Source: Marsupella aquatica
Lineage: Eukaryota; Plantae; Marchantiophyta
Reading direction: 5' to 3'
DNA: 64,000 nucleotides
NCBI GenBank assembly: GCA_973895155.1
Contig: OZ316894.1
Coordinates: 4,240,944 to 4,304,943, forward strand
Both the position numbers and the translations under genes were made by a program. Shown here piece after piece: positions 3,089-58,900 of this stretch (position 1 is its first letter; every line of letters starts with the position of its first letter). Under the pieces are notes generated by a model. The model saw only the letters and a list, made by a program, of their open reading frames with translations, did no database searches and had not been told where the DNA came from.

Positions 3089-5277
3089 TGTTGTAACCCG
3101 AGTTAACCAGACCATACATGAGGTTAACTAGGTTTACGCCTACTCAGGTTAGACCACATTAACTGTCTAACCGCCTGGCTATTCGATAGCCTATATGTAA
3201 GGATATGGAAGGGAATGAAGGATCAGTTGTTCTATACCTTACAACACGTTATCAGCACGATGCTGATTTGAATCAATTTTTTTTTTTAAATTATCTCCTC
3301 TTTTCTTCTCTTGAGATAGATTGGCAACCTCTTAGGAAAGGATTGATGGCAGGCGAAGGTGCAGCGGTGGCCAGATCAACCAAGGGGGATGGAATGTTAT
3401 AAATCAAGATTACACATTGGACGAATCGGACGATTGAGATAAGAAATTACAATTCACCAACTACAATTTGCAATTCCATTTCCTCTTTCTCAAATTTCAA
3501 CAATGGAACGAAATTGAGATTCGACACCCAAAATACAATTGCAACCTTGTGCTTACCAACAAGAAATTATACCACTTGAATCCTGTAATATGTCAAAGAA
3601 TTCTATGGAGAAACTCTTATTTCAACCACTCAGCATCGATGGTGCCAACTATTTGTCCTGGACGCTCGATGCTGAAGCTCACCTAACTTCAAAGAATCTA
3701 CAGGACACAGTAATAACTGACAATGGCCAAACACTTCAGCAAAAAGCGCAGGCATTGATACTAATTCGACACCATTTGAGTGACTCCTTGAAGCGACAGT
3801 ATATGAACGAATACAATCCGAGAGTCCTTTGGGACGCACTTCAATCACGCTTCGACCACACGCGTATCATACACCTGCCTGCAGCCAGACACGATTGGAT
3901 AAATCTCCGGGTCCAGGACCATAAAACAATCGCGGATTACAATTGCGAATTATTTCGGATTGTATCCCAATTGGCCATATGTGGCCACCCCGTTAATGAT
4001 GACGAACAGATTGAGAAAACGCTCTCTACCCTTCACACTACAAATCTCATCCTCTCTACCCAATATCGCAATACGCGATTCACCCAATACTCCGAGTTGA
4101 TTGCCCATATGCTCCTGGCTGAAAAGCACCAGCTATTGCTATTACAGACCTCGATCCGTAGACTACATCGCGAAGCTCGGACCAACTCACCTCAGTCGAA
4201 CAGATCTCGAACAAAGATCACAACAGACATCTACAAGAAACGGCAGCTGCGCCAACATGACGAAATGAATGACTATAAGAGAGCCACAAAAGTGAATGAC
4301 TCAGGGGGAGCAATGCGCAACCTCGCCTGTAAAGCAGTCGGGAACAAACCTTACCCGCCACAGTTCGCCACATCCGCTCCCCGACACTCCCATCGCACAA
4401 AAGCAAACTGAACAAAGAAGAATCGCCCGACCTCAGAAAGAACGACCACCAACAATGCAGCTGCACACACCTCCCACCGAAAACCATCGACCTTGTGACG
4501 AACACGCCTAGGCCCAGCATCACTTCTTCAGGAAGAAAGTTGAGTCCATTGCCCCTCGACATCTAACAAACGACCAGGACCACAACGCGCATCAACAATC
4601 TAACATGAAGAAACCGAACACCGCACATCGATCATCTCAGACACGAGGCCGCCGTCCACCCAACCAAAGCACATTCAAGATCTTCGAAGCAACAGAATGC
4701 CGAAACTACAAAAGAGACACTTCCGCGATGTGCATTCCTTCGAGACGACCCTCACACTGTAGCAGACAACACCAAAAGCTCGCTACTGCAACCACCAAAA
4801 ATCGCCACGCAAATTCTCTCACTTTCGAAACTCATACGAGACATTTAGGTCTTTACTAGTTCCAATAACGTTACATAGCATATGACACCCTTACACAATT
4901 TTAACTCTAATAACTCGATTACTCATAACTTAACCATGATTCTAAGGTTTTTAGGGATGGAATGGTAACACTCTTTCCCCCCAGCAAGAAAGGAGGGGGG
5001 GTTTTAATGAGGTTACATTCCCCCCAACCCACAAACCTCAGAATACACATTTCACATTTAGAGTAGGCTAGAGGTGGGTGCAACATTCCTCCCCAGATCA
5101 TGTTACACCCAAGGGGGAGTGTTGTAACCCGAGTTAACCAGACCATACATGAGGTTAACTAGGTTTACGCCTACTCAGGTTAGACCACATTAACTGTCTA
5201 ACCGCCTGGCTATTCGATAGCCTATATGTAAGGATATGGAAGGGAATGAAAGATCAGTTGTTCTATACCTTATAACA
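3089..5277 (+). mobile_element. Non-autonomous gag-only Ty1/copia-type LTR retrotransposon (TR-GAG-like)
   Basis: 158-bp LTRs at 3089-3246 and 5120-5277 (TG..CA, 2 mismatches seen); 5-bp TSD ATATG (3084-3088, 5278-5282); PBS-like CGTTATCAGCACG after the 5' LTR; polypurine tract AAGGGGGAG at 5111-5119; no pol. Confidence 0.93.
3590..4411 (+). CDS. Copia-type Gag protein
   Basis: ORF 3539-4411, probable start MSKNSMEK. Motifs LSIDGANYLSWTLDAE.HL, LILIRHHL...LKRQY and LW..L..RFDH are typical of copia Gag; the C-terminus looks decayed. Confidence 0.8.
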   Translation: MSKNSMEKLLFQPLSIDGANYLSWTLDAEAHLTSKNLQDTVITDNGQTLQQKAQALILIRHHLSDSLKRQYMNEYNPRVLWDALQSRFDHTRIIHLPAARHDWINLRVQDHKTIADYNCELFRIVSQLAICGHPVNDDEQIEKTLSTLHTTNLILSTQYRNTRFTQYSELIAHMLLAEKHQLLLLQTSIRRLHREARTNSPQSNRSRTKITTDIYKKRQLRQHDEMNDYKRATKVNDSGGAMRNLACKAVGNKPYPPQFATSAPRHSHRTKAN

Positions 5278-35912: not shown

Positions 35913-38900
35913 TCAAAACCAGGGCATCCACCAAATGTACATCTTGCTCAAGTTTTCAAGAGAGACAGCTTCTGCAATCAGTCTGTGAACCTGCCCCTCA
36001 ACTGAGAGTGGAAGTGAAGGGGCAGCAGCAACCCCAACCACTACTCCCTCCAACCTTGCCTCAATGTTGGCGATGGCTTTCTGTGCATGTGGATTTTGCA
36101 CCTCTACACCACTAGATTTATGGGACTTTGTCCACTCTACCAGTGGATCATGGATAAAAGTCTCCAAGACACTCATGAGTGTCTCACGGTGTGATCTCAG
36201 GACAGACAAAGTGATCTCACAGACTCGTAGAAACATCCCCTCATATCCTGTTATCCCAAGACCATCTATCATATTCTGTGTGAGTCTGAACGGCACAAGC
36301 TCTGGCTTCTCAAGTTGTAGCCCTTTGTCAAAAAGGCAGCTGAAGTCCACATGCACACAATCTCCAGTGGTAGAGTCGAACAAGATGTTCTCTCCATGCC
36401 TGTCTCCCAGCCCCACCATGTGGCCTACCATTGACCAAACGGCTGTAGTATGGGCATAAGCCACCCTAGCTTGGAACCAACTTGCAGGCTCTGGGAATGT
36501 GTTTAGAAACCAGCGATGAAACACAGGTGGAAACATGGGCAAAACTTTGGTCAGCAGCATATCTGCGTCAGACATCTTGTCAGGATGTTTATTGGCCTGC
36601 TGTTGGTCATAGATCCGCTTGATGACTGGGTTCGTCTTTAGACGGTCAAATTTGCCACAAGCAACGTACACGTCCTGCAATATGTGTCTCAATCCTCGAG
36701 TATGGAGAACCCACTCAATCATCCCACAGTCCTCACTCAGAGGGACAACGGCGAAGGTGCGAATGTAGAGCTTCCGACGGCGGCTGTTTGGATCCTTTGA
36801 CAGTAGCCGGTTGATCATCGTTGTAAACTCCATCATTCGTGCATCTTTGCGTAAGTCATCCTTCGGCTTGCACAAGAAAGGGTGCTCTAGTCCATCACTA
36901 CCCAGGAGTACCACCTTTTTTGGCTTCTGGAGGGAGGCTAGAATTTCAACCTCTTCCCCAATGCCAAAAATGGTTGAAAATTCTGCAGCGGGGAAAGGGT
37001 TATAGTTCATGTCTGTTAATCCATGTGCCGGAAGTGTGACTGTGAGGGCTTTTTGAAGGGGCAAGATCACCCCCACAGGCATCAATCTCTTCAGATATCC
37101 AAAATCAGCTGCCAAACTAATTGTCTTTGCTTTTGGCTGGCCAGCATAATTACAAAGACGAATCATCTGGTCAATCAAGCCAACGAACTGAGTCAAGAGG
37201 ACTATCTTCTCCCTGTCCTGGCCTAGAGAATGCCTTAATTGTTGAACTATTTCAGCAGCTGCTTCTCGTCTTGCAGGAACAATTGACTTTGTGACAGCTG
37301 CCATGCTCCAGAGGGCCTGTTGTGGGTATGCCTGTAAGACGCTCGTTATGATGTGCTTCACTAGGCGCACCACTTCATCATTGTGGTGACAAATACGTGA
37401 GACTAACTGTGGAAGTGAGGTGAGCCACTGGTAGGAAGGAAGATCCTTCAGGCAGCCCCTTACAATGCCCATCACCCGCGAGTGCACAGCTTTCACAGCT
37501 CGACTTGAAGAGTGTGAATCTCCACAGGAAAAGCTCCCAAATTCAAACCATAGGGTGAGCAAACGAGGCATTGCCTGAAATAGGTGGACATGTCCTTTGT
37601 GTAGACTCTTTGCATAAAATAACATCACATCTGGTAAGTAATTCCACCAAGGCTTGTCGTCCGTACTAAGGCGTCTTCTGTTGAGACCACTGGCATTGCC
37701 AATGTCCTGGTTCTCTTCTTGCCTGCGCCGAGCATCAACCAGTAGATCATCAAAGTACCTGGCCATAAAAAAGTACCCCTTCTCCCACTTTGGCTGCAAT
37801 TCCTTGACCCGAGCATACAGGCTCACAACATCATCCTTTTGTTTCTGGCCAGTGTGATGCACCCATCTTGCAAGTAGAAGGAGAGTTTTTGCCGTCTCCA
37901 TATCCTTATCCCTTCTGACCTGTGTGGATATTTTGATTGGGGTGCTTGCTGGAGACCTTTGGTTTAACTGCTTTATAGGTGACTTCCCATGAGCATGGAG
38001 GAGACCGCTAAGGGCAACATTAAGTGCACTGCCCAAAATAGTACGAGGGGTTTCTCCAAGGGCCTCTTGCAGCTCTAAAATTGCACGATGACTTTTTTTT
38101 GTGTCCCATAACAGTTTTGCCATCTCCATGTGAGCATTTGGTGCCCCAGCAGATTTAGCCTGCAATATGGCCCTATTGGCAGTCTCAAAGTGTCCAGCTG
38201 CGCGACAAAGCTTAGCATACTGCAGCCAACAAATACCAACTTCAGATTGAAGATCACTGGCACCGAGGATCAGCCTTCGAAGTGCTAGAATCGGCTCACG
38301 TGTCCACAACGATGGTTGTGTTATCTTTAAGCGAGTTTCCCAATGTTCAACCAAGTCAGTCATGCTGACCCTCAGCTGACGGTTATCTGGTGCCTCCTTT
38401 AAGGCCGCAATTGCAAGAGAGCTAAAGTCCTCCAGCTCTTGCAACATATGCAACTTGACAATCAGGGGATAAGCTCTTGTGTAAGATTCCATGCTTGCAG
38501 CCGCTAAAGGTGCCAGAAGTGCTTGCCGAGAATGCATAATCTGCTCCGTGAAGACGTCAAGATCTTTCTTCTGAAGGGCCTGAAGAATCTTAGCCAAGCT
38601 GATATCAAAAGCAGCATTATGCTCATTGCCATTCGCTGAAGCACCATCACCATCAGCTCCAGCAACATACTCTTCGAGGAGATCCCACTGACCAAGCCGC
38701 CATGCCGCTTGAACCCCTCTCATGTACCATTCCTTCTTATGGTCTGGCAAACGTGAGACTAATCCATCCACATGCGTCACCATGGCTTGGAGGTGACCCA
38801 TGTTAAGCAGGCAATCCAGAACACCAGAGTGTTGTACAACACTAGAGGGCTCCATTTGCAAAGCTTGCTCACAGCATGTCAATGCCTCCGCCCAATTTCC

Positions 38901-41900
38901 CGCATTCTCGTTGATTAAGATTTGATCCTGCAGATTTGTTGAGGTTCTCAAACGAGACAGCCCAGAGAGGCCATCAGGCTCATCCAGTCCACTATAGATC
39001 GCCAGAAGAAATGTCACATCCTCATCGGCAAAAACTCCGCTGGTCTCCGCAGCAGGATTAAAGGACCCTGACTTTTCTCGCACATGAGTTTCAAAATAGA
39101 GTAGAGCACGCGCGTAAGCTTGACATCGGAAGGAAGCTCCAGCCAGTGCTTGCTTTGGAATTGCAGCTAGGAGCTGGATTACATTTTGCCGATGTAGGGT
39201 GGAAAGGTTGGAAACTTGCCTTGGCTCACTCTGATTTCCATTTGAGTTGTTGGCATTCGAGTTGTTTCCATTCGAGTTACCTCTACCTGATCCACCTGAA
39301 ACTTGCGGACTTTGACTTGTGCTTGGTTGTTTACAATCGTCCAGCCATTGGCCAAGATTATCAATTAAAGTGAAAACTGTCTGGGTGCTAACCTCACTTG
39401 GTCCTGACCCGCCCCTAGGCATAATGCCAGGCCCATTCTCTAGACCAGTGAGAGATGGTGTACTGCTTGTAGCGGCTGCTTCAGCGAGTACGGCTAGGAT
39501 TTCATCAGTTACCGATTTCCTTGGCTCAACAGATCCATCACAAACAACATTGAGGACTAGATAAGGCAGGAGGTAGAGGGCCGTACCCATGTCATGCCTC
39601 ACAACACTTGTACAAGCTATGAATATCTCCGCCCTTTGCCCAGTTGATTGACATATAAGGCGGCGAGTCCACAAATACATCCATCTTCGAAAGGACATGC
39701 CTGGTCGGAAAATTGGACCGTCAGGTGTGGATGCTCCTGATTTTTTGAGGAAATACTTTGACGTCAAACAAGGCGTGATAATCTCTTTTACATCATCTGT
39801 GAATCTTCGCCAGAATTGTTCTCCAGTATCGGCCATGGTGTTTGCATCCGCTCCTGTTGTGTTCATGACCTTTGATGTCTTGGATGACCCACCTCTCGCT
39901 CTCACTGAAGTGTTAGTAGTTTCTTGTGCCCTAACTAGAAGAAGGGCCTGACAGCCACTAAATTTCAGAAGCTCCTGAATTGCAAGTGCTGCTGCATCTT
40001 GAATATCTGTGTCTGTAGCAGCCCTCAGAACCCTTGCCAGATGATCGTTGATTAGCTCAAAAACCAGGTCCTCATTACTCCGTTCAATTCTCGACTGGTG
40101 CCTTAAATGTACCTGCAAATTGTGGCCTAATCATCGTAAAAAAATTGCCCAAGGGAAGGATTGCCACGATTCTCAAATACAGCAAAAGAAGGGGTGAGTA
40201 GGGGAGCAGGTTCCCAGTGAAACATATCCATTAATATCGAATCTTGGTACGCTTGGTTTGAAGGATGGCGACCAACTCCCTAAGAACTCTCAACCAAAAC
40301 TAAGCTAATTTAAGAACATTATGGGCCCTTGCGTTATATCAGAATATGAGCCGGTTCTCAGGTTTCCAACTAAGCTCGTTTTTCAAAAGATTTAAAAAAC
40401 TAATGAATCGGAGTAACTTGAACTGTGGTAATAAAACCAGAATTTTAAGAGGCAGGCTTTGGGAAACACGATGCCTTAAATATACCTGCAATTTGACTGG
40501 GTCCACAGCTCCCAGCTCTCCCAAACACTCTGCACACGCCAGTTTTAATCTCTGGCTCATAGCCGTGCGTGACTCTTCAGCGCATCCTCTCAACAAGGCT
40601 GTCACTAGATTGCTTACAACATTCACATCCATGGCCGACTCCCCTGCCAACATAGTCGTCATGTCCGTTCTCTGTGCTTGCATGACTTTGCGAAGTTCAC
40701 TGCCAGTCATATAACGAACACTCATACTCTCATGCGTAAGTCCATCTGCCACTCGTCTTAGTTGATCACGGAGACAGAGAGATCCCCGCGCTTTTTGGAG
40801 GACGGCATTCACCTGACTTAGAGATGGAAGACTGGGGAGAATTGGGAGCTCATGAGCCTGATCCTCCAAAAATGAACCATTTTTCAGTACTAGTTCCTCC
40901 AAGACCTCTACAACTGCTGTTTGCTCCTCTTCTTGACCTTCCAAGCATGGCATAAGAGCAACAACAATCTGGCTGGCGACATTCTTTGCACTTGCAGGTG
41001 AGGTTCGCACCAACGTGCGTACAAATGAGAGCCACACTTTCAAACCTGCAACTTGGAGAGGTGCATCTTGCAATGCACGCGTAAGGAGAGCCATGATTTT
41101 AGGCACAAACGCGCTGAGATGAGGCCCAATCATTTCCACTAAGCGCTCAATACAACGAAGGGCCTGCTTCTGAGAGATCACATCTTCAGCCCGTAGTAAC
41201 TTCCGATCAATACTATTCAAAAGCCCGACAAAATGGCCCCTCAAAAATGTGGGAAGATCATCTGAACCTGTGACAATACTAGCCACTTCTTTAATCATTG
41301 GTGCCACCCTTTCGGACCTTCGCTGAGCATCCTCGTCGTCCGTGTCCCCAAGGAAACGCACCAGTTCATCTAGAAGAGCTGGTAGTACTGCTGTAAATAT
41401 TTCACGAGGATCCGAGCACGTCTGCATTTCATAGAATTGCAAAGCTGCCATTAACTCTGTGCCGTCCGCTCTAAGGAGCAAAACCGATAGAACCTTATGA
41501 CACCACTCTAACAATAATAGAGGAAGATCAATGTTGAGTTGCTTTGCAAGTTCATGCAACGTGTCCAGAGCTTGTTGACTATGCTGTTGATTGAGTACAA
41601 GCTTTGGCAGGACGTCTGGGACCATTTGCTTGAGAAGATCCTGAAAAGCAATCCCAAGGACAGCCTCAGCAAACTCCTGAATCATGACCGGCCGGGAAAG
41701 AAGGCGATTGATCAAGTACTCAAAGAGCTCTTCCCTAACAGAGTCCAGTATAGACTGGAACTTATGAGCCCCAGCTTTTTGTGACGTCATGGAGCCAATT
41801 CCATGAATCAACTTCACACTTTTCATACGGAGTGAGAGGTCTTTGCAGTCGAGCTGCTCCACAAGAAGAACCAGTGAGAAGAACAACAGTTGCCGATTGT

Positions 41901-44703
41901 GATGGGAAACATTTGCAACTTCAGCAATTGTTTCTATCAAAGTGTCTACGACATCTGGATCGTGGGTTGTAGTTAGCGCATGCTTCAGTTTTCCAAGCAT
42001 TTGGAGCTCATGGTTAGCTTCACTGTCATCAGCATTCCCTCCAAAAATTCCAGCGAGAACGTGTGCTTTGGTGAAGAACTTGATTTGTGAACAAAAGGCC
42101 TCTCTCACATCCCGACGTCGATGAACGGGTAGCATGCCCAGACACTCAAGCCATGAAGTTTTGGTCATGGCAATTTCATCTGGTGTTGAGTGCTGTAGTA
42201 ATTGTGACATACAGCCTATGAAGGATACCTGGACATGCTCCGAAGTCTCTTTGAAGAGAAGGTCATTGAAAAGGTGCTGCCAGAGGACAAGAGGGGAAAA
42301 ATAATCTTGTCTTTCTCTCGGGCCACTTAAAGTGATAACGTTCTGACCAGTAGACTCTCTATCATTGCACAAAGAGCAGACAAAGTTAGGTTTCAGCTCC
42401 CCTCCTTTGTATCCTCCCGCCATTCCAGTGATTTGATCTCGTTCAGGAAATTTTGAAAAAAAGAGAGAATTATGAAGGCAAGCCATGACCCCAACGATAG
42501 CAGCAACAGCATCTCGAACTTGCTCTGCATCATCCCTTCCAAGATTTCCAAGTGTTTCACAAAACCGTCGTACAATTGCAGGAGTTGTCCACTGCACAAA
42601 GCTCGGAATGGCTGCAACTGCTGCAGCTCGGACCCTGTCGTCACCATCTCGGAGAGCTTGTCTCGAAATATTCTCAAGTCTCAAGTCCTCCATATCTCCT
42701 GCTATTCTTGAAGCAATCCAAACCGCACAGCTTTTTGATCTTCTTGTGATAGTTTCTTGGCCAGGTTGTAAAGTAGACCAAGGAAGCAATAATACATCCT
42801 TCATTACATGTAAGTGCTCAGATGTGCCAAGGAAACGCTGCTGCTGGACATTTGGCACAGGGTCACTCCCGGCTTCATTGCTTTGTTCATGCTCAGACAA
42901 CACTCTTTCCACAGTTTCCAAAAACATGGACAGCTGCAACTCTGATAGACTTCCTTCTTGTGCCTTACTATGAATCCAAGGCAACCAATGATGAAGGAGT
43001 TGGGTCAATTGCCTGTGACACACAGTCCCCGAGTATGCACCGAACATTTGTACAAGAACAGATAAACCGGTAAGCTTCCCTTCAATGTCTGAGTTTGCTT
43101 CCAATTCTGTGGAAGGGGCTAGATCTATCATAAGGCGTAAGGCTTCCTTTTGTGCCTTTGCTGCAGGTGACACCGTGTCTCGACTGTCAAACTTGGAGGA
43201 TGAGCCACTGCTTTGAGGAGAGATCTCATTTATGAGCAAGTCTATCATTGAGGGAATTTGCACATTTTCCATGGACGAGTCTTTGCTGGCATGCTCAGCA
43301 TTTAGTGGCTCCTTATTTGTCATGTCTTGCTTCCTGCTGATACTCTGCCTCCGGCGCTTAGCTGGTCTGCTTTCGGTCTCCTGACTGTGTTGAGTTTCGT
43401 GCGTTACAATAGAATCTCCTGACACCGATGGCGAGGATGGTCCCTCTCCACCTTCAATCATTTTACCATGAAGGTGAAGTGGGTCTGTGCCGTCAAAATC
43501 TGTAATTTTTCCCGCCACCTTTGTTGTACCCAGTAATTTCATCGCCATTTGTAGGCTACAGCCAAGCGATGGGCCTATTCCTGGAATTTTTATTAAATCC
43601 AAGATTGATGACAAAATTGATGCATACGATGGACACTGCTTGAGAATCAGAGAGAGAATTTTGAACATGACTACTTTCAGGTCTCGGCTGGGACTTTGCT
43701 TCACAGTTTGTGCCATCACATCACAGAAAGCTTGGGCAACACACTCGATCGTTCCACTTTGACAAGAGGAACACAAGGAAAAGAGACAGGCCCCAAGAGC
43801 TGAATCAAATGTAGCCGTTCTAAAAGGAAGAAGATCACCGCCACTAAATGATAAAATGTTAATTAGTGACATGATTAGCCTCTCACTTGGAAATGTCTCC
43901 ATATCCATGACTGATGTTGCTATACAAATGAAGTCAAAGCACGCCATTTGCAGAACGGAATTTCCATAGCACATCAGTACACCCACTGCTGAAATCAAGG
44001 ACTCTGTTAAGAGGCCTTCTACATGAAGTGCTCCCTCCTGAAGACAGCGCCCCAGCAACTTGACCGTCCACTCAGCTAGGGGCTGCCATGATACCTGCCC
44101 ATTAACGTCTATTACAAGCCCTTGATTCTTGTCAAGCATCCCAGCGGCAGCAGTTCTGCAGTCTTTCAAACTTGATAGCCCAGAGTACGCTCTCAAATAG
44201 GACTGAACAGACAAGTTTGGGCCTGTTGGGACGGCATTGGAACTTGCATAGAACGATGCAATAGATACCAAATCTTGAACAAGAATCATGCCATCCATGA
44301 ACATTTTTTGATAAGTCTTACATTCGCCAGCTCGCAATAGGGCCATGAAGGCTGCCCAAGTCTCAAAAAGTCCTTCATGGCAAGCCCTCAGCTCCCATTC
44401 TGCGAATAGCGGGATTATATAACTCAGGATAGGAAGAACTGACCGTCCTTCTCCGTTGTAGAAGACGCCAGGGTAGTGCTTCACCATCATGCGCAAAAGT
44501 TTCAAAATCGCTAGGAGTTCTCGCTCCTTCACTTTGCCTCGCACAAAGGAGCGTTCCAGTAGAGTTGGCAGCACCGAACGGAAACGAGACTCCACAGCAT
44601 CGTCCTCATCGTGCTGCGTGCTTCCTGTAATATCTCCTTTATTGGCGATGCGGTCGCCCAAATCCTGGAGGAGGACGAATAGGTCTGCCATCCCTTCCCT
44701 CAT
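35913..44703 (-). CDS. ATR: Serine/threonine kinase ATR (PIKK family), 2 exons: 44703-40486 and 40112-35913
   Basis: HEAT/UME region, FAT (AYARALLYFE), kinase (LCKPKDDLRKDARMMEF, GLGDRHGENIL, HVDFSCLF) and FATC end NLSKMYIWWMPWF. One in-frame GT-AG intron at 40485-40113. Confidence 0.96.
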
Positions 44704-45580
44704 CCCAATGCTCCTCTTACTGACTACGTTACATCCTTGCAGTGAGGTCTCTCTCCAATTTTATTTTCAATTCGGTCACCCATATTCTGGTGATGTGCAC
44801 AGAGGTCTGCCATTCCCATGCCTCATCCCAATTCTCCTCTTCCGAATTGCTCTACATCCAGCAACTGTTGCAATAAACCCTTAACCCGAAAGGCCCTTCA
44901 CCTTTACTGGTGATTTCGTCACCCAAATCTTAGTGAAACGTAAACAAATCGGCGGTTCTTTCCCTCGTCCCATGCTCCTCTTCCACAACGTGCTACATCC
45001 ACCGATTCTTCAGCTCAACCCTAAACCCTAAACCCCTCCACCTTTACTGTCAATTCCGTAACGCAACTTGTAGACAAGAACAACTCGATCCTCCATGCTT
45101 TACCTTGTACCAATGCTCCTCTTTCAAACTGTGCTACAGTCAGCCGGTTCTTGCAGCTAAACCTAACCTCCTTCGATTTACCAGCAATTCGATCACCCAA
45201 ATCCTCCAAGAAGTACTAGTAGATCTGCCATCCTTTTCCGCATCTCAACGCTCCTCTTCCACAGTGTGGTTACCTCCACCACATTGCACTCCCACTTGGC
45301 AATTCGGTCACAGCGATACTAGAATATTTGGCATCATTCTCTCGTCGCAATACCCTCAACATTGCCCAGTTCTTGCCGGAAAACCTCAACCCTTCACCAA
45401 ATTCGGAAGAACCAGAAATTGCTCTCCCATTCTTTCCCTCATCCCCGTGCTATATCTCCAAGCTCCTGCCATAAATCGTCAACCCTCAAGCCATCCTTAC
45501 TGGAATATCGGTCATCCAGATCATGGAGAAGTACGAATAGATCTGCCCTCCCTGCCATCATCCTAAAATGTGCTACAACA
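44645..45580. repeat. Degenerate tandem copies (about 7-8, ~120-140 bp) of the ATR start-codon region
   Basis: CGGTCGCCCAAATCCTGG..GGTCTGCCATCCCTTCCCTCATCCCAATGCTCCTCTT..TACATCC recurs with decay at about 44772, 44917, 45055, 45190, 45304, 45398 and 45509; one copy still translates as EDLGDRIA. Confidence 0.75.
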
Positions 45581-47170: not shown

Positions 47171-48335
47171 TACATATAGTTGACTATGGAGGTTTCCTAA
47201 GTCGCTTGTCAGGCTTAGGGAGCTTGAATTTAACCTTGGTGTAGTCACAGGGAGTGTGCTTTGGGACCCACAATCATCTTAACTAATTCAGGGAACCCAC
47301 TTTGTGCAGCAGAATTTGGCATGCAAGGTCATTTGGGTCAGGCATGGCCCTTTACAATTGCAAGTCAGGCTAGGTCCACCATAGGTCATAGTTTGACTCG
47401 TTGAAGGTCATGAAATTTGTCAGATGACCGGGGTCCTTCCCTACTGAAATTCAAGAAAAGGAGGCCCAGATGGACAGCTTCAAACATTGAGGTTTGCCTG
47501 GATAGCAATTTTCACACGAAAGATTAAAGAGTGCGCAATTGGCAATGCATGAAAGATGTCGTGCGCATAAACATCGCTACACAACATACATCGCTTGTCA
47601 CACATATCTAAGCATAGTCACAATCAACATTACAAACATAAGAGAATGGAGTACAAGTGGAACTCCTATCCACACATGTCCAAAACTCACAATAATCTTC
47701 AAGAATAATCGAACAACGATTGATGCCAATCAAACACACAATCTTGTCTGACGCGATCACACACTTATGTCAAGCCAAACGCACCTTGCGCCTCAAGGAA
47801 TCCACGTTACGTACACACAACCTAGACAGCCACACCATAGCCGCTAGAGTTTGTGCTCGAAAGGCTCAACATCAAAAGATGAGACCTTTGAGCCAACACA
47901 AAGAGATATATAACTATCCCTCACAAACATACACTAACCCTAAACCACTTAGATAACACACATATGAAAGCCTCAAACCTACATAGTCCGATATCCTATA
48001 CTACCACTCATAATGGTGTGACAGTTGTCGTGCGCATAAACATCGCTACACAACATACATCGCTTGTCACACATATCTAAGCATAGTCACAATCAACATT
48101 ACAAACATAAGAGAATGGAGTACAAGTGGAACTCCTATCCACACATGTCCAAAACTCACAATCGCCCCCCTAGCTGGGAGTGAGGTCCCCTAACTCTAGC
48201 TAGCCATAAGTTCTACAAGGTTGATATACACCTTTTTAAGTGTGGAGATCAGGAGGCCGGGTGCAAGTGAGCCCCATCGATCACCTTCCTGCAATCTATA
48301 CCTTCCATGAGAACACCAATGGTAACTAGTCGGCT

Positions 48336-50708
48336 TCACCGACATTGAGGACACAACCATGATCCACTAGGAATCACCTCTAATGGTGGTGTTAAACACG
48401 ACATGTGCCATCCTCTAGAACACTTATCACAAATCAACATAGTGGCTGCTCCTTGAGCAGATCCACACAACATACACTTCAAGCCGGCACGAACATGAGC
48501 CAAACTTGGATCTACAGTACCGTCAATGTTTGAAAGATGACATGGTGCACAATTGCGCACATGATCCTTCCAAACCATACCATCACGTCCTTCCAACATT
48601 AGGACACCAGAAGATAACACTTCACGCATACGTAAGATTTTCCGACCTGCGGTCACATCAAGTGTCGTGGGTGCTGTTTGCTGCAAATAAACAAAATCAC
48701 CAGGATGAAACCGTCGAATCCTCGCACGATAACCTCCTCCACGAATAGTGGCATACCTCAAAGTATCACGATGTTGGGCAATGGCAAGGTTGTCAAAGGC
48801 CATGGGCATGACTCTCTTGAAAACTCGTGCCCTTTCTGAACACACCTTGACCCAAACATCGGGATCGTCCAAATCCACAACAATTGCCACATCACGACGA
48901 ATAGCCGCTGGCAAATCTGGCTCTCTACCATAGAGCAAGAAATAAGGTGAGAAGGATGCAAGTGATGCTTGTCGACTAAAACGGTAGCCCATAGCTAACC
49001 AAGGTAGCTGGAGATCCCAATCTCCCAAATGACCAACCTGCAAGCCATACTTACGCAATCCTCTCTTCACGGTTTGTACAACTCTCTCTGCCAATCCATC
49101 TGCTTCAGGATGATCACGAGAAGTAGTACGAGGATCAATAAGAGCTTTCTCACACAAACCCTCAAACTCTCCACGAAATTTCGTACCCTGATCAATCAAC
49201 ACCTCAGCTGGTGCTCCAAAATGACTGAGTACTCGATCCAAAAATGTGATAGCCACTCCTCCACTAGCTTTATCTGGCAATGCCACTAGTTCAATCCACT
49301 TGGAGAAGTGCTCCACCATAACCAAAATATATCGATTATGACGTTGGGTAAGAGGTAATGGACCAGCAAAGTCCAAACTCCATCGATATCCCAAACCCAT
49401 TATCGATAGTGGATGCAATTGGGGAGTGGGAGCATTGAACGATGCTCGCACTCGATCACATACCACACACTTAGCAATCAATTGTTGGACCTCAGTGCGC
49501 ATACCACGCCACCAATACTGTGTCTGCAACAAGCTATATGTGCGTTTCACACCAAAGTGACCCAACTCCTCGTGCGCATGTCGCACCAAACGTACTCGTT
49601 GTGACGGTTTTGGTACAACCAACACCTTGCCATCACGTAGTATCCTCAAAAGATGGTTTCCTTCCCATCGAAACCTCTTGGCTCGTTGTAGAACCCTATC
49701 TCGCTCCTTAGCATCACAATTGCCAACAATGGAGCCACCACGCAAATATTCCAACACTCTTTTGTCGTTATGAATATCTTGCTGCCCAAAAACTACCTCA
49801 TCAACATCCATATCTGAAGACTCAACGTCTACCCCATCCAATGAAGTAGAGTCCATAGATCCACTATATGTTGGAACCCAACAAAGAAAGGCAGATGCAT
49901 GCCATCCTGGCACACTCTCCTTATCCGACCCATCATGCCATCGAGCTCCAGTCTCATCCTCTTGACTGGTACATGGATTACGGCTCAACCCATCCGCATC
50001 CAAGTTCACTTTACCAGGCCTATGTACAACCTGGAAATCATACTCTTGTAACAACAATGCCCATCGTGCAAGCTTTCCTGTAAGCTTGTTAGACTCCATT
50101 AACCACTTGAGGGGCTGGTGATCAGTGATCAAGGTGAACAGATTACCAAACAAATAGCAACGGAAATGTGCCACAGCCCACACAGCTGCCAAACACTCTC
50201 CCTCATACGAGCTATATTTAGCCTCTGCTGAATTGTTTGATCTACTGGCATATGCCACAACAAACTCATTCCCCTCATCATCCTTCTGAGTCAGCACTGT
50301 TCCAAGTCCTACTCCACTCCAATCAGTGTGTAGTTGAAATGGTCGTCCCGAAACGGGTCTTCTCAAAATAGGTGTTGACGCCAATCTTTCCTTCAATTCT
50401 TGGAAAGCATGCTCTTGGTCGTCACCCCAAATCCACTCCTGGTCCAACTTAGTGAGTATAGTTAAAGGTTTAGCAAGTTGGCTAAATCCTTTCACATACC
50501 GTCTATAATAGCTCGCCAATCCCAAGAATGCACGAACTCTACTCACATCAGTAGGACGAGGAATTTGTGTAATGGCCTCCACCTTAGTCTCTTGCACACC
50601 CAATCCTCCTGGGTAGATAGTGTGGCCCAAATACTCAATTTTGTCTTGGAAGAACTTACATTTGCCAGGATGGAGTTTCAATCCATGTTCTCTCAATCTC
50701 TCCAACAC
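48336..50708 (-). pseudogene. Pol C-terminal part: RT thumb, RNase H, DDE integrase, C-terminal PHD finger
   Basis: FLGLASYYRRY, LHTDWS, YEGECLA, TDHQPL, HEELGH..CVVC, WSLDFAGP, DQG, GLAER; PHD CMLC..CDKC..WHMSC..WLCPQC. Separated from the RT core by an in-frame TAG. Confidence 0.92.
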
Positions 50709-50711
50709 AAT

Positions 50712-51416
50712 CTACAAGTGTCTTTGATGTTCTTCCACAGTCGAAGAATAGACCAAAATATCATCAATGTAACATCTCACAAAATCCAAACCTGCAAGAA
50801 TTCGATCCATAACTCTTTGGAATTCAGCTGGTGCATTCTTCAACCCAAATGGTAAGAACAACCACTGATACAAACGATCTTTGCCATAAGAATCAATTCC
50901 CCAAAATGTTGTCTTGGATCTATCCGAATGCCTAATTGGCAATTGATGGTACCCCGCCTTGAGGTCCAACGAACTAAATATCTTTGCATGCCCCACAACA
51001 TCAAAGATCTCCTCCGGTGTTGGCATGGCATATCGATCAGATTTTGTCTGACGATTAATAGGTCGATAATCACCACACATTCGCCTATCTGTGTAATTGC
51101 CATGCACATCCTTCTTGGCTGGCATCACTGTGGCAGATGCATACTCCCCGTATGAGATCTCCACCAAACCAGCCTCCAACAAATCCTGAGTTCTACTCTG
51201 GATCAAAGCCCTCTCCATGTCACTATACCGATACGGTCGTCGAAAGATTGGCGCATCACTAGCCAATTCGATCTGAATACCAGGACCCTTCAATGTCCCC
51301 AAATCCTTCATACTAAATGCAAAACAATTCCAATAACTCTTCAAGAATTGATGCATGCAACGTCTCTCCCTCCCGGTCAACTTAGGACCAATCTGTGGTT
51401 CCCAACTCTCCATCAA
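50712..51416 (-). pseudogene. Reverse transcriptase core (Ty3/gypsy type)
   Basis: RMCGDYRPIN, LDLKAGYHQ, LPFGLKNAPAEFQR, YIDDILVYS. Confidence 0.95.
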
Positions 51417-51419
51417 AGC

Positions 51420-51590
51420 TGTGACATCTTCCTTTGGAGTTGAAGAGTCACAAGCCGCGGGCTGTGACTCTCCTTCAAAGTTGTGACGTCTTCCGTTGGA
51501 GTTGAAGAGGCCACAAGCCGTGGGCTGTGACTCTCCATCAAAACTGTGACGTCTTCCTTTGGAGATGAAGAGGCCACAAGCCGTGGGCTA
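51420..51590 (-). repeat. Three 57-bp (19-codon) repeats in the DNMT-RT linker
   Basis: CACAGCCCACGGCTTGTGGCCTCTTCA..GAAGACGTCACA occurs 3 times; the third copy has a 1-bp deletion that shifts the frame. Confidence 0.85.
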
Positions 51591-51779
51591 TGGATGGAAG
51601 AGTCAGTCGCTCGTTGTTATTTATCAATAGTTTGAGCAACCTCCTTCTGCTCAACAATATGTTCTACCTTGGCCAATCTTGCCATAGGTCCATCAATCAT
51701 CTGCTCGCCCCCAGCTGTGGCCGCTACTGTCTCGATAGGCCGCAAGCTCACCAATGGACGATCTGTAACATTAGAAGTG

Positions 51780-52770
51780 CGCATTCGCAATTGTTCAGCT
51801 AATTCCAAGCTGATAATCCAAGTCAAGCAATTCAAATCCATGGCTTGACCAAGGACTTGACAACGTGAATGCTCCGACACCGAGGCCACTGTAGTGGTGC
51901 TAGTCAAAAATCCCATAGTCCGCTCTCTCTCATTAGCGGTAGGCTCTACTAGTCGTTGTAGAGCTGTATCCCACACAAGTCCAGGGCCACCTGCTCGAAA
52001 TGCGTATGAAGCAGAATGGCTCACAAAAGTGGGTAATGCACAACGCGGACGCCCAACAATATTCACCACTGCCAATGGGGTTCGATCAGATTGGGTAACA
52101 CTTTATGCATGACGCCCTGGATCCAAAATACTATCCACCACTAAGGTTGCTGAGCGAGGTACACCATCAAATGCTCGCTTTAAGACCTCACATGGTAACA
52201 AGTTAGTCCACCATAATCGTGGACAATGGGCACGAGAACCCACACATGCAGCATCCAATAACACAGCAGGTCCAATCCAAGATCGAACCTGATGAACACT
52301 AGCAACAATTCGATGACGATCATCACCCAATAATGGGACATTCTCCAAAATGTATGCAGGAGAATGTGTCTGATGCATCTGGAGATGGCGCAACACACGT
52401 AATATCTCCCAAAATAATGCAGATCTTGGATCATGAAATCCATGTCCAATTCCAGCCCGAGATTGACCCTGACATGGCCAACCCGCAATCACCAAATCAA
52501 TGGGGCCAACACGATCCAAATAATCCACCCCCAATAATGAAATATCAGTAGGCAATGCATGCTGATAACCACAAACGGCATCCACTGGCAACAAATGTGG
52601 ATAACGTTCCACCAACATCGCTACATGACGTAGTGAGATCCTCCGTGTTATCTCATCATTTTCCACGTACAAGTAACGACGCACAGGAATTCCTGCTTGA
52701 AGAATAGCAGCCAATCCAGTGCTAATCCCACCAAATAAATGCAACAAACAAATACCCTCCTCTGGATACT
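51780..52770 (-). pseudogene. C5 cytosine DNA methyltransferase domain (DNMT3/DRM-like motifs) inside the retroelement polyprotein
   Basis: Motif I LHLFGGI, II YVENDE, IV DLVIAGWPCQ, SALFWE, VI ILENV, VIII RLWWTNL, IX EPTANERERTMGF, X VLGQAMD. One in-frame TAA at 52103-52105. Confidence 0.9.
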
Positions 52771-53199
52771 GCCACACAATAGGAGTGGTATCCAATGGTG
52801 AAAGGGTCACCGGTCCATCTGCAAAAGATTGTTGTGCTCTTGACTCCGGTGTAAAAGCATGACGCCAGGCATCATGTATCAATTGGGTCGCATTTTGTTG
52901 CAAGGCCTCTCCAGTACCCCATACTGGTGCCACAATGGTATCAACAGGTAATACACCCATCATGTGTTCCTCACGTGGCTCCTCCATTGCCGGAACATCT
53001 GTTGCATGTGCATTACCTTCAATCAACTCATCAGATCCAGTAATCAAACTACTGAATGCTGCCAAAGACAATGGTGCAGATTTAGGACCTCCCACAGGTC
53101 CACTAAATCGCACTGGCAATTGGCTCAATCGAGCATCTCTAGATTGCCAATCGGGTCGATACGACACCGACTCATCCCAAAAATCAAGAACAAATCCCA

Positions 53200-55515
53200 T
53201 AGGATAAAGTACTGTACATCATACGACTCAACCTTAGTCAAAATAGCTTGAGCCTGGATCCGTGAGTTATCCTTTGGATGATCCTCTCGAATCCTAAGTT
53301 CAAGTGCTCGTCTGGTGATATGTTGTTTGGGTGTAGGTCCTCCCAATGAAGTCTGAATGGGAAAAGGACACTCCTCCAAATCATCTGGACACAATCCCAA
53401 TCCTTGTATCGCAGACTTACCCAACATCAAGGGCTGAGCACCAGTATCCAATAACACTCGTTCTGGCTGGTATATTGCTCCAAAAGGCCCAACTAATCGG
53501 AAGATACCACTCCGATTATCCAATGATACCACACTAGGTTTAAACCTAGTTCTCTCATAGGCAGGGCGTGCTGGTAACTCCATCAACCTCGCCGTTGCTG
53601 CTGGCCATGTTTCACCACTAGCAATAGGTGGAATCAACTCCACAACTTCAGATTTATGCATTGTCTCTGCACGAGAAGCAACAACTGGAGTGTCTTCACA
53701 TAATGTGGCCGCCAATCTGAACACTTCAGCTGGACTAACTCCCAATGCTAATATATCTGTTGCTGAAAATAACGGGGTGTGCACAATGTTAGTGGCCGCC
53801 CCCAACAAGGTACTTGCTAGACCTGCTGCAACATCATCCGATTTTACCGACTTATCAACACTTGGATTTGTCTTAACCGGGTTCATAGAGGTAGTGTGAA
53901 CTGCCTCTAACAACGTAAACGATTGAGGAAGCTTTGTTTGTTGACGAGCCTCCCCCCTTTGAGGATCCAACTCTACCATTGCTCCTCGGGGCTCAAGGAC
54001 TTTGGTTGCTCCTCTAGTCAAAGCTGCCGATGCGTCAACATGGGTAGTGCCACACATGAATCCCATGGTGGCCAAGTCTCCGTCAGCTCCATAAGATGTA
54101 GAAGCTCCATCACCAGAAGTAGGTCTAACCTGAGAACTGGCCATGGCAGCTAGTTGTTGCTCCAATTGAGCAATCTTTGCATCTTTTGGATCTATGGTAG
54201 TGGCAAGAGCATCACCTTGTTGTCTCCCTGCATGTGGCATCCCTCGTCCACGACCACCACCTCTACCTCCTCTTCCCTGATCATATGTACGCGATCCTCC
54301 CCGTCGTAGTTCAGGATGGAGTACAAAACACCTATCTTTGGTGTGACCAGAAACTCCACAATGATCACATAATCGTTGATCGGGCATAGATGCCCCTCTA
54401 CTATCCGGGCAATATCTTTGTGCATGATCCCCACCACAAGTCCAACATCCTGACTGCTGTCCAGCATAGGAGGGCACAGGTCTCTGACTAGTAGATTCCC
54501 GTGTTGTAGGCTTCTCCCTCTGGCTCTTCCTTACAGTAGGTTGCAGTGTGGGTGTAGATGCAACCTTTGGTGAGCCTTCCTTGACAAATCCGGAAGTCAC
54601 CACCTTCTCATTCACCATATTGAGCTCAATGCGCTCGGCTAGTGCAAAAACAATAGCCAATGTGGGATCTGAATCCCTCAATAGAGTGGCGTCTCTTACT
54701 CTACGCCGCAACTCTCTATCCAAAATTGCATACCAAAATTGAATTGCTTGGGCCTCTGTCACTCCCTTGGTGATTGTAATTAATCTTTGCATATGAGTGT
54801 ATGCCTCGCGTAGACTCTCTCCAGTCTTGCGCTGAAAATCTTGAAGACCCTTCAACTTATCAGTTCTCACACCCTGGTAGTTTTGCTTCAACACATCAAA
54901 GAACTTCACCACAGGGTTAAATGTTGGCACAACTCCACTCCCACCCACAATTGCACTGGTAGGAGTAACAGTGGATACTGGTGGAGTGCCACTCTGGCTA
55001 GTGCTACTAGAAGAAGCAACAGCCGGGGCAACAGGTTGAGAAACCGCACTTGTGCCGTAAGTGATGGACACATAGTTTGGTGACCAATGTTGTCTCCATA
55101 TCTCAATATCAGCCAAATGGGTCTTCCGAAACTCATGGTAATCATCCATGGGTGGACCCTCCAAATGCTGAAACAACCCTTTCCATGCCATGAAAGGTGT
55201 AAACAATGTGGCGTTACCCATCGTTTGCATATCACACCACGTATCAAACTCTTGGATGAAATCATCCAAATCAATTGTGCCAACTGCACCAGAGTATCTT
55301 CTAGGGCCCTTAGTGGACCCATACGTCTCCTCCATATCCCACAACAATGGTGCAACTACCTGATGATGAGGAGAGTTGACTACAGAGCCCTCGTAATCAC
55401 TATCTGAAGCTCTACTAGTATCTGCTAGCAATGTCGTTGGCCGAAATTGCACTCCACTTCGAGTGAAACCAGTCCGTTGTTCACCAAGTAGCTTTGCATT
55501 ATTGGAAGACTCCAT
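53200..55515 (-). pseudogene. Gag with two CCHC zinc knuckles and an RGG tract, followed by an aspartic protease
   Basis: FQRKTGESLREAY, CWTCGGDHAQRYC, CDHCGVSGHTKDRC, VLLDTGAQ; frameshift at about 53215 near the protease C-terminus. Confidence 0.9.
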
Positions 55516-55529
55516 GATTCCAAAACCCT

Positions 55530-55952
55530 AGGCCACAGGCCGTGGGCTGTGGGTACCTACCCACACAAACAAGATGAATCAGCCACAAGCCGTGTGCTGT
55601 GGGTGACTACCCACGCAACCAAACTTCAAGAGGCCACAGGCCGTGGGCTGTGGGTGCCAACCCACACAACCAAGATGAATCGGCCACAAGCCGTGGGCTG
55701 TGGGTGACTACCCACGCAACCAAACTACAAGAGGCCACAGGCCATGGGCTGTGGGTGCCAACCCACACAACCAAGATGAATCGGCCACAAGCCGTGGGCT
55801 GTGGGTGACTACCCACGCAACCAAACTACAAGAGGCCACAGGCCGTGGGCTATGGGTGCCAACCCACACAACCAAACTATGAGAGGCCACAGGCCGTGGG
55901 CTGTGGGTGCTAGCCAAGCTGCAAGAGGTCACAGGCCGTGGGCTGTGGGTGC
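55530..55952. repeat. Hairpin-forming tandem array in the retroelement 5' leader (9 units of ~50 bp, 101-bp higher-order repeat)
   Basis: GCCACA(A/G)GCCGTGGGCTGTGGGT at about 55531, 55582, 55632, 55682, 55733, 55783, 55834, 55885 and 55927, with two alternating spacer types. Confidence 0.92.
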
Positions 55953-58900
55953 CTCCCCACCAAAACTCTCTTTGCTCAAGTCATGCGCTAAACACGCAAT
56001 TGACGGGAAAATCACTATTCAGTATTTGTCGTTTCCTCTGTGCCCTAAGTCACAGCCGCCTTGCCTCTCCGCGGTGCCTTATCTTGTCGCGCGCCGCCAA
56101 CACAATTCACCAACATTCAACGTCGTTTCCTTCATAGAAACGCACTATCCATCAACAAGGAACTTGATGCAAATCAGAACTGCATCCTACAAAAATTGTA
56201 AACATAATCAACTATCGGGCTCCCAATTGAACCACCTCAATCAAAACCACAAAGAGTCGCACATCCGACTACTTTCCCTTCACAAAATAGGACCAGACAC
56301 CATCGTCTGTCTCACACACAATTGTCGATAGCAACATTCGCTTGTCGATCACACAATCAATCCTCCACGATGCAACACCGCATATCGATGAAGACCGCAA
56401 CTCCAAAACCACAACTTAGCAACAACAACTTGAAGCTTCACTTGAACTACGCAAGCGTCGCACCAACTTGCAATAGATCGAGATACCAGCGATCCGTTCA
56501 ATAACAACACCCGATCCGAGCTACCACGAATCGTCAACAACAAAACCAAAATGAAATCAAACTTCTGTCTGCACAGTCCGCACCACAGAGTTCGAAGCTG
56601 ATCTTTTGATGTAATCTTCAAGAATAATCGAACAACGATTGATGCCAATCAAACACACAATCTTGTCCGACGCGATCACACACTTATGTCAAGCCAAACG
56701 CACCTTGCGCCTCAAGGAATCCACGTTACGTACACACAACCTAGACAGCCACACCATAGCCGCTAGAGTTTGTGCTCGAAAGGCTCAACATCAAAAGATG
56801 AGGCCTTTGAGCCAACACAAAGAGATATATAACTATCCCTCACAAACATACACTAACCCTAAACCACTTAGATAACACACATATGAAAGCCTCAAACCTA
56901 CATAGTCCGATATCCTATACTACCACTCATAATGGTGTGACAAAGATCATATTTTCAAGCTTAATTTTCTGCAACTGTTCAACATCTCAAGGCCCACTTA
57001 GTTTGCTTGGAAGGCCATCAAATGAACTTTCCAATAGACCAATGTTTGCTTGATGCTGATCACAAATGGAAACATTACCAGTGCCAGAAGCGGGACTCTA
57101 AAGCAGCAAGGGCCACCCAATCGCATCTTTAGGGGCAACATCCATCCAAGCATACATTTGCTTGATGGGGTTGTTTTTCTTTGTGATTCTCAGAACCACA
57201 AGGTGTGAGGTATGTTTATGGTGTTGGCTCAAAGGTTGTCCCCAACCATAATGACCTTGCCAGCCTGGCCAGGGGTTCCCAAGTCTCAAATTTTCAAAAT
57301 CTTACTTATAAAGCGCCAAGGGGAAGATAGAGTCAGGGTCTAGGTTTCTAGATTGAAGTCTCTAGACATGACTCTAGGGCCCCACCAAAGAAAATGTGCA
57401 TAGAACAAAGATGTGCATCCACATGATTGAATATTATGTATGAAATAAATGAGAGTATATGTGCATGTAAAGAAAATATGGATACACATTATGGAATATT
57501 ATGTATGACATGAATTATTGTTTTCTAATCATTTCATTAATATTTAAATAATGGAAATAAGAAATATATATTGTTATATTTTATTGTCCTCTTCTCTACT
57601 CACCTTTTGTTATACTTTATTGTCCTCTTTCCTACTCTCCTTCAAAGAAGGGGTAGTCAGGCTAATGTTATCTAAAGAAAGAGTGTCAAGGGTTTTGCTG
57701 AGTGTCAGGGGTTATGCTTGCTCGCCCATGGTTTGTTAATGGACCATGGCTGTAAACCCTTCTAGCTTGCCGCCCTTGGGCATTACAGACAGTTACCCCC
57801 TCCAGGCCATGGGTTAAGCTACACTTACATGATTGTTCTACACCAGAAGATCACTCTTGTGCAGGAATTTTGTTTATCTCCTTGCACCTCGTCTGGAAGG
57901 GAATTCATTTCCACATGATAATTCTCCACTAAGCTGAAAGGCCCATGGACGTTACATAACTCTGCACACTGTTCTCCATCAAGAGCTGGACACCTCTTGA
58001 CTCTGCCCTGAATGTTGTTGCTCTGCAGAAAAGAAATTGATTTCCCATCCCAACTCATCTTAACGGGAAACGGGAAAATTGTTTCCATTAGTTCTTGGAT
58101 TGAGAAAGTAACACTCATGAAAATTAAGCATAATAGATGACAACATTTGCGGGTATTCTTGCATCTTGGAGAATGTGTCACCTTTGCAGGAATCAGGATA
58201 CACAGGGTTGTTGAGTACCCAAGCCCACAATATGAATCTATGAATCTATCTATCTTCGATAACTATATAATAGCAATCAAAAGCTACTCAATCAAAAGCT
58301 ACTCCCTGGGCCTACTACAATGGACATAAAACTGAAACTGTAGACAAGAAACAGGGATGGGGGCAAAGATGAACCGAAAATAGCATGGAGTCCTGTTCAA
58401 GGAATGATAATCAGGCTATTAATTACAAAAGCCAACCCATACCTGTCAGTTTGGACCAAGAGCCAAACCATCCTGTCAGTTTCGACCAAAGAAAAGAGAA
58501 AGGGAACCCCAAATGCAGAAACTGCTTATAGATTCGACTACGAATCTAGCACAGGTCCCACTACTTCAATGACTTCGTCATACTTGCCATACACTGAGTT
58601 GGCTTGAAAAGCGAAGCGAAACTGGGAAGTCATCACTGTAAAATCGAGCCCTCATCATTGCATTGGTGCATCTCTTTGCTCAATCAGGCGGACCACAAGG
58701 TCAAGCGCCAACAAGGACTAGCAGTGAAATGCTAAGACATCCATACTGCAAGAAGATACTGGAAGAGAGTATTGAAAGCGGTAGGTAACTTCAATGTGTG
58801 GTAAAGTATCTACAACTGGTGCAAAGACCATCAGGAGCAGCAAGTTACAATCAGATGGAAACCTTAAGAGAGTTCTCTATCCTGAACTGCAAGAACGCAA

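Follow-up and report, generated by a model that had tools for sequence, protein, structure and literature searches.

By the textbook account, long terminal repeat (LTR) retroelements and retroviruses integrate a linear complementary DNA (cDNA) by its ends, with circular forms as by-products. The window analysed here, 64,000 nucleotides (nt) of the liverwort Marsupella aquatica (contig OZ316894.1, positions 4,240,944 to 4,304,943), holds a retroelement (47557–56942, minus strand) that raises the question of which ends an integrase joins to the chromosome: the element carries split direct repeats (X and Y), and its inserted ends differ from the ends set by its primer site and purine tract, as they do across five families. 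The reading developed below, given a probability of about 0.7 as a whole scheme, is that the inserted ends represent an internal palindrome that the integrase cuts, and that the true cDNA ends are joined to one another by end-joining. Internal cutting by the integrase, taken separately, is judged very likely. The 14-bp site and the flush joint described below make the question testable.

Inserted ends and predicted cDNA ends

The element opens and closes with TG..CA, is flanked on each side by AAGA, and reads in transcription order X1, leader, coding region, purine tract, Y1, 2-bp spacer, X2, Y2:

56943–56946: 4-bp target-site duplication AAGA, upstream copy
56613–56942, minus strand: X1, opening with the TGTCA arm of the internal site and containing the TATA box, predicted transcription start, R and U5; putative promoter
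56826–56831, minus strand: TATA-like box, 32 nt ahead of the self-primer
56788–56799, minus strand: predicted self-primer, the first 12 nt of the transcript if it starts where predicted; exact complement of 56612–56601
56601–56612, minus strand: self-priming primer-binding site, directly adjoining X1
55518–55960, strand not assigned: 50/51-bp tandem array in the 5' leader
53125–55527, minus strand: gag and aspartic protease; Cys/His knuckles by sequence, weak Pfam match (E 0.012), frameshift near 53215
51620–53218, minus strand: C5 cytosine methyltransferase domain with FGG, PCQ and ENV motifs; internal stop 52103–52105, terminating stop 51617–51619
48336–51587, minus strand: reverse transcriptase (RT), RNase H, integrase (HHCC, D..D-34-E) and C-terminal PHD finger; stop 50712–50714
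48163–48171, minus strand: polypurine tract, conserved in five families
48026–48162, minus strand: Y1, starting at the first base past the purine tract and closing with CACGACA
48019–48032, minus strand: internal junction CACGACA-nn-TGTCA, spacer 48024–48025, arms conserved in five families; predicted integrase cutting site
47694–48023, minus strand: X2, its last base being the one that precedes the primer site in X1
47557–47693, minus strand: Y2, flush with X2; the joint 47693/47694 unites the two predicted cDNA ends
47553–47556: 4-bp target-site duplication AAGA, downstream copy

X1 matches X2 at all but 2 of 330 bases, and Y1 and Y2 are identical over 137 of 137. An earlier note on this DNA had described this layout, and with it TG..CA ends, a 4-bp duplication and a DDE integrase without a recombinase; coordinates, repeat identity, the AAGA on both sides and domain scans bear all of this out. 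Its X of 331 bp is a real repeat, but one base can be assigned to X or to Y, and X is counted here as 330 bp. A blast comparison of the element with the whole 64-kb window revealed no further copy of X or of Y. Neither the window copy nor its relatives are bounded by a pair of complete direct LTRs; such a pair belongs to the predicted cDNA only.

Inserted copies terminate within the predicted LTR, where Y meets X, and not at the predicted cDNA ends. At the internal junction this boundary takes the form of two integrase ends placed back to back, with a spacer that is missing from the inserted ends. The CACGACA and TGTCA arms are invariant across five families, while the spacer (AC, GC, GT or AT) and most adjacent bases vary. 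Apart from the arms the termini have few columns in common, and 107–138 bp separate the purine tract from the cut site in the five families. The possibility that X alone is an LTR with its own CA was rejected, as the CA after X does not lie at a conserved place across families.

The X2|Y2 joint unites the last base before the primer site with the first base after the purine tract. It is flush in the window copy, as it is in 10 of 12 distinct members of one family of relatives (the L007 family); the others carry one extra base (L004) or filler with a remnant of the purine tract (L015/L016), which fits what end-joining leaves. Y1 and Y2 resemble each other more within a copy than across copies (distance 7.0% vs. 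8.9%; permutation p 0.0007, 11 copies, with L028/L029 left out for a broken Y1 match), and no column separates all Y1 from all Y2 in these 11 copies. That Y2 follows the Y1 of its own copy is expected if both derive from one template in each cycle, although gene conversion may be another source of the likeness. In the window, the base at 47631 is common to Y1 and Y2 and almost absent from the contigs of other copies.

The primer site itself points to priming without a transfer RNA (tRNA). The 12 bases past X1 (56612–56601) are the exact complement of 56799–56788, which lie 32 bases behind the TATA box, and only 1 of 5000 shuffles of X contains this complementarity. Pairing is retained with three different sequences (12 bp in the window, 12–17 bp in the L007/L038 family and 16 bp in L030), with 0–1 of 5000 shuffles matching in each of the three families; mean pairing probability in the latter two is 0.67–0.94, and in each of the four foldings the pairing goes up to the last base of X and no further (4/4). 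Counting duplicates, 14 of 18 5' ends have their best match at the expected site. The earlier note had inferred priming without tRNA, which the complementarity supports; it was right that no TGG-type site follows X1 and missed the self-priming site at 56612–56601. By sequence, the end of X is thus the predicted start of the minus strand, and the beginning of Y that of the plus strand. With primer site and purine tract both present, reverse transcription looks ordinary, and from their positions an ordinary cDNA with two LTRs reading Y-nn-X is predicted.

An inverted repeat, GGCTCAA..TTGAGCC (56782–56818), flanks the self-primer in X, likewise in the X copies of L007/L070. It could hide the primer-like sequence in the 3' copy within the RNA, the RNA 5' end being without the upstream arm. 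The X1 of L015 has lost the inverted-repeat stretch around the self-primer by deletion.

The layout in relatives

Relatives were fetched by integrase alignment as 80 loci, the best of 259 confirmed matches, all on metagenome contigs. A Y-X-Y 3' end was found at 21 of the 80 loci (13 distinct flanks, 12 from one family plus L002) and a Y-only 3' end at 24 (20 distinct flanks); the remainder comprise two apparently collapsed loci (L030, L033), two with inverted ends (L075, L078), two interrupted (L048, L049), one at a contig edge, and 28 with no usable 3' end, 8 of which extend beyond the integrase. Ordinary two-LTR copies, the case that the earlier note had set against its own reading, number 0 among the 80. 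All 16 distinct 5' ends begin in X, with no X or Y within the 122–700 bases upstream. An exact 4-bp duplication flanks 9 of the 12 copies with both ends, the window included, against 3 of 132 cross-pairs, and duplications of 3, 5 or 6 bp were seen in 0 of these 12. L050, whose 5' end is damaged, and L049, whose 3' end is interrupted, do not enter the duplication count; in L015 and L047, where the terminal TG is mutated, the boundary was placed by alignment. L030 and L033, which read Y-X (followed in L030 by the primer site), were treated as collapsed, the ends of L030 appearing to overlap, and were used for motifs and not for layout. The split-repeat layout is therefore supported as a family trait, neither a one-off nor a mis-assembly.

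That a rearrangement or mis-assembly of an ordinary two-LTR element produced the layout is refuted for the family by 13 distinct Y-X-Y insertions elsewhere, by their 4-bp duplications and by a report of the same layout in Klebsormidium (PMC5890265, Fig. 4c legend), and is highly improbable even with the window holding a single copy and the flank contigs of X3, possibly the source sample itself, entering the element by 30 and 29 bases, slightly below the 31-base bridging rule. In contigs from four sequencing runs the family of the window element is covered far more deeply than the element flanks and is abundant; no loose contig ends occur at element termini among the 24 listed of about 1650, which carries no weight either way. 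Viral contigs gave 103 pattern matches and 0 relatives.

Two rearranged copies still terminate in a junction arm. L075 (3361–3878), like L078, reads Y-X followed by inverted X bases 1–180, which stop exactly at the primer 3' end, and finishes in a junction arm; these ends look like the relic of an event in which a longer RNA acted as primer, or of fold-back at the inverted repeat. In L077 (3236–3500) the left end joins an inverted stretch of Y, purine tract and 3' leader to the primer site, and likewise terminates in a junction arm.

A proposed insertion route and its competitors

The inserted form equals, in its sequence, a two-LTR circle opened at the upstream site, and the following route would produce it. 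Transcription would start in X1 about 32 nt past the TATA box, and the first 12 nt would fold back onto the site after X1 and prime the minus strand, as in Tf1. The plus strand would start past the purine tract and, with the two strand transfers of standard LTR replication, yield a linear cDNA with two Y-nn-X LTRs and ends without a conserved CA. These ends would be end-joined, most likely (at slightly better than even odds) into a two-LTR circle before insertion, otherwise during insertion repair. Integrase would cut both strands after CA at the upstream CACGACA-nn-TGTCA, the 2-nt overhangs would be lost, and both arms would be inserted with a 4-bp stagger. The product, X-ORFs-Y-nn-X-Y (ORFs, open reading frames) with a 4-bp duplication, is what is observed; it keeps one uncut junction, so that the next round can rebuild both ends. 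Copies reading X-ORFs-Y may come from one-LTR circles, from cuts at both sites, or from later Y-by-Y deletion.

Several observations weigh against this scheme. The whole of it is read from sequence, and the layout evidence comes from metagenome relatives and the window copy, the sole insertion read from the window's own family. In 4 of 18 5' ends (L010, L015, L059, L061) another stretch matches better than the expected primer site; eight loci that continue past the integrase have no recognisable junction (L005, L006, L042, L044, L071–L074); 3 of the 12 two-ended copies lack an exact duplication (two match at 3 of 4 bases, one is mismatched); and the X1/X2 distance is smallest within the copy in 2 of 4 copies, a split that favours neither side. 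A free two-LTR circle has two equal sites, so X-Y-X-ORFs-Y is expected as well, yet this permutation occurs in 0 of 8 Y-only two-ended copies and 0 of 16 5' ends (rough p 2–3e-4 under equal site use, L002 being counted among the 13). The scheme requires either a bias towards the upstream site or loss of the X-Y-X-ORFs-Y form, both hypothetical. The absence can be explained by upstream-site preference, by collapse, by a cut on linear cDNA with later joining, or by an end-to-end jump of RT. With one expected permutation never seen, a free circle is not established; as the integrase substrate a circle is plausible from the sequence, accounting for a little over half of the weight given to the scheme.

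The competitor that survives best, though still rather unlikely, places the same internal cut on linear cDNA with no circle: integrase would insert the two arms of one site and the host would repair the break between the free ends, end-joining giving X-ORFs-Y-X-Y and annealing of repeats giving X-ORFs-Y. The same X2|Y2 joints are explained, and if the downstream site were used, X repeats of 330 bp would lie at the break and readily anneal to X-ORFs-Y, a collapse under which the missing permutation is expected. The 107–138 bp between purine tract and cut also look as if a site near one cDNA end were chosen. This order of events would require a chromosome break with each insertion, and joints that are flush in 10 of 12 copies are compatible with joining before or after insertion.

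Under a further alternative, which is considered quite improbable, RT would leave the X end of the cDNA for the start of Y and copy a third junction, after which integrase would cut the first and third sites. Such a jump has the observed asymmetry built in, the left end always being X1 and the right end Y1 or Y2, and would account for the single shared base that two families have at the joint. The joint of L002 has no shared base, assuming the usual primer-site start (its 5' end is off the contig), and the filler in L015/L016 is more like end-joining.

A route of the PAT/Ngaro kind, in which the transcript reaches Y2, both junctions arise by copying of the RNA or are restored through annealing with the internal Y-X, and the resulting circle is opened by integrase, takes its appeal from the A-B-A-B order described for PAT, Ngaro and VIPER (PMC6681497, PMC7192593). 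It is very unlikely here: primer site and purine tract lie exactly at the end of X and the start of Y, Y2 tracks the Y1 of its own copy, some joints contain filler and a purine-tract remnant, and no priming site was seen downstream of Y2.

Relation to known elements, coding capacity and neighbourhood

PAT, Ngaro and VIPER, as described in the parts of the sources consulted, share with the window element the order A1-ORFs-B1-A2-B2 and an internal copy of the end-to-end junction (PMC6681497, PMC7192593, PMC8969392), but have a tyrosine recombinase and no duplication, unlike the DDE integrase, purine tract, primer site and 4-bp duplication found here. Membership in the PAT/Ngaro group was rejected, given no tyrosine recombinase and a 4-bp duplication in 9 of 12 copies; only the repeat order is common to both, and the layout is convergent. 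Of the hybrid replication route suggested in the earlier note, DDE integration where Y meets X is supported. A mixture with tyrosine-recombinase elements is not supported, with RT, RNase H and integrase all Gypsy-type and a primer site and purine tract present.

Self-priming through a primer site complementary to the RNA 5' end has been described for Tf1 and Tj1 (PMC4600332) and predicted for plant Tcn1 (PMC6317226). The window element resembles Tf1/Sushi and Tcn1 in having, by its sequence, a primer site complementary to the predicted RNA 5' end directly after the 5' repeat; they differ in having two ordinary LTRs and a chromodomain, where it has split repeats, a PHD finger and a methyltransferase. 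Phygy, with a reported NCGN target preference (PMC6317226), was rejected, this preference being missing from the 12 duplications. HIV-1 integrase is reported to be able to cut the palindromic junction of two-LTR circles (PMC1905944, PMC4372172), which is comparable in that a DDE enzyme cleaves a pair of inverted ends abutting inside an unbroken DNA. In HIV-1 the site consists of the fused cDNA ends and its use is a side route, whereas here it is a separate, fixed sequence within the LTR, used by every inserted copy seen.

Circle junctions of the IS3/IS30 type are comparable abutted-end DDE substrates. If integrase does open the internal site, this would be a natural DDE integrase that cleaves its own donor DNA as a site-specific nuclease does, and split direct repeats could arise without a recombinase. 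LTR finders that require paired LTRs would miss or mis-bound such elements.

Troyka, the comparison suggested in the earlier note, shares LTR-type RT and a DDE integrase, but is described with CG..CG ends, 3-bp duplications and paired LTRs, in animals only (Kojima, 2025; PMC12440569); the TG..CA ends and 4-bp duplication of the window element led to its rejection. Gypsy-7a_cRei of Chlamydomonas, described with a PHD finger, 'LTR subparts' and numerous new insertions (PMC9940879), is a lead for comparison only.

The closest description in print is KnitGypsy-Dnmt3 of Klebsormidium nitens, with DIRS-type repeats and Gypsy domains (de Mendoza et al., 2018; PMC5890265, Fig. 4c legend), the arrangement A-coding-B-A-B being the one given there for DIRS elements. 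The window element shares its cytosine methyltransferase in a Gypsy Pol and its DIRS-like A-B-A-B repeats; the consulted parts of that account are silent on the primer site, the cut site, the length of the duplication and the mechanism. No published mechanism for the present insertion route was found in a literature search outside Repbase Reports, theses and most subscription papers, and apparently the layout has been in print once with its mechanism undescribed. De Mendoza et al. place capture of the methyltransferase in the K. nitens lineage (PMC5890265), unlike the distribution seen here, with relatives in liverworts, Sphagnum, Closterium and Haematococcus; a methyltransferase search gave no Klebsormidium match.

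The RT placement that the earlier note had proposed was made with FastTree on RT-RNase H (127/200 sequences, midpoint root). The nearest named relatives are from liverworts: the window element groups with liverwort proteins and metagenome loci (support 0.99) within a clade that also holds Klebsormidium, Closterium and Haematococcus proteins (0.98, midpoint root), none of them labelled KnitGypsy-Dnmt3. With mostly unnamed outgroups, the tree supports the clade and not a position among named Gypsy lineages. A tentative generalisation, at somewhat less than even odds, is that in an old green-lineage Gypsy clade (chlorophytes to bryophytes) the integrase site moved from the cDNA ends to a fixed LTR-internal junction, with circular cDNA as the normal route. 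If true, the circle-junction model put forward in the past for retroviruses would have a real example, one that combines a DDE integrase with Tf1-type self-priming and has come by convergence to the repeat layout of tyrosine-recombinase elements.

Assignment to Ty3/Gypsy (Metaviridae) follows from the order PR-RT-RH-IN (protease, RT, RNase H, integrase) with a Gypsy-type RT, the HHCC and DDE integrase and the target-site duplication; the best solved RT match is Ty3 (E 1.5e-29). A profile scan of the element's frames found RT, RNase H, H2C2, rve and PHD, together with a C5 cytosine methyltransferase domain (PF00145, E 5e-12) unmentioned in the earlier note. No tyrosine recombinase family was matched in 5 long frames, 9 shorter frames of at least 100 amino acids and 2 sub-stretches, all within the element, and the integrase has a PHD finger in the place of a chromodomain. 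Its spacing is D-34-E in 81 of 81 pattern-matched relatives; the usual spacing is 35. A 63-bp repeat between methyltransferase and RT (51387–51605) has the same core as the 50/51-bp leader array (55518–55960).

The copy is broken by three in-frame stops and two frameshifts, on which the earlier note was silent. This damage to the coding region (48336–55527) contrasts with only 2 differences in 467 positions of the terminal repeats, which suggests that the copy moved in trans from an already damaged template. In Marchantia polymorpha many annotated genes are copies of the methyltransferase-bearing element (proteins P0103, P0104, P0125–P0141), and these may therefore inflate DNMT gene counts.

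Elsewhere in the window, a 2.2-kb element (3089–5277) with 158-bp TG..CA LTRs (99% alike), a 5-bp duplication and a copia-type gag (PF14223) as its sole ORF is a young non-autonomous Copia. About 2.8 kb from the retroelement, two very long uninterrupted frames (35913–44760, minus strand) read in translation like a gene for the plant ATR kinase.

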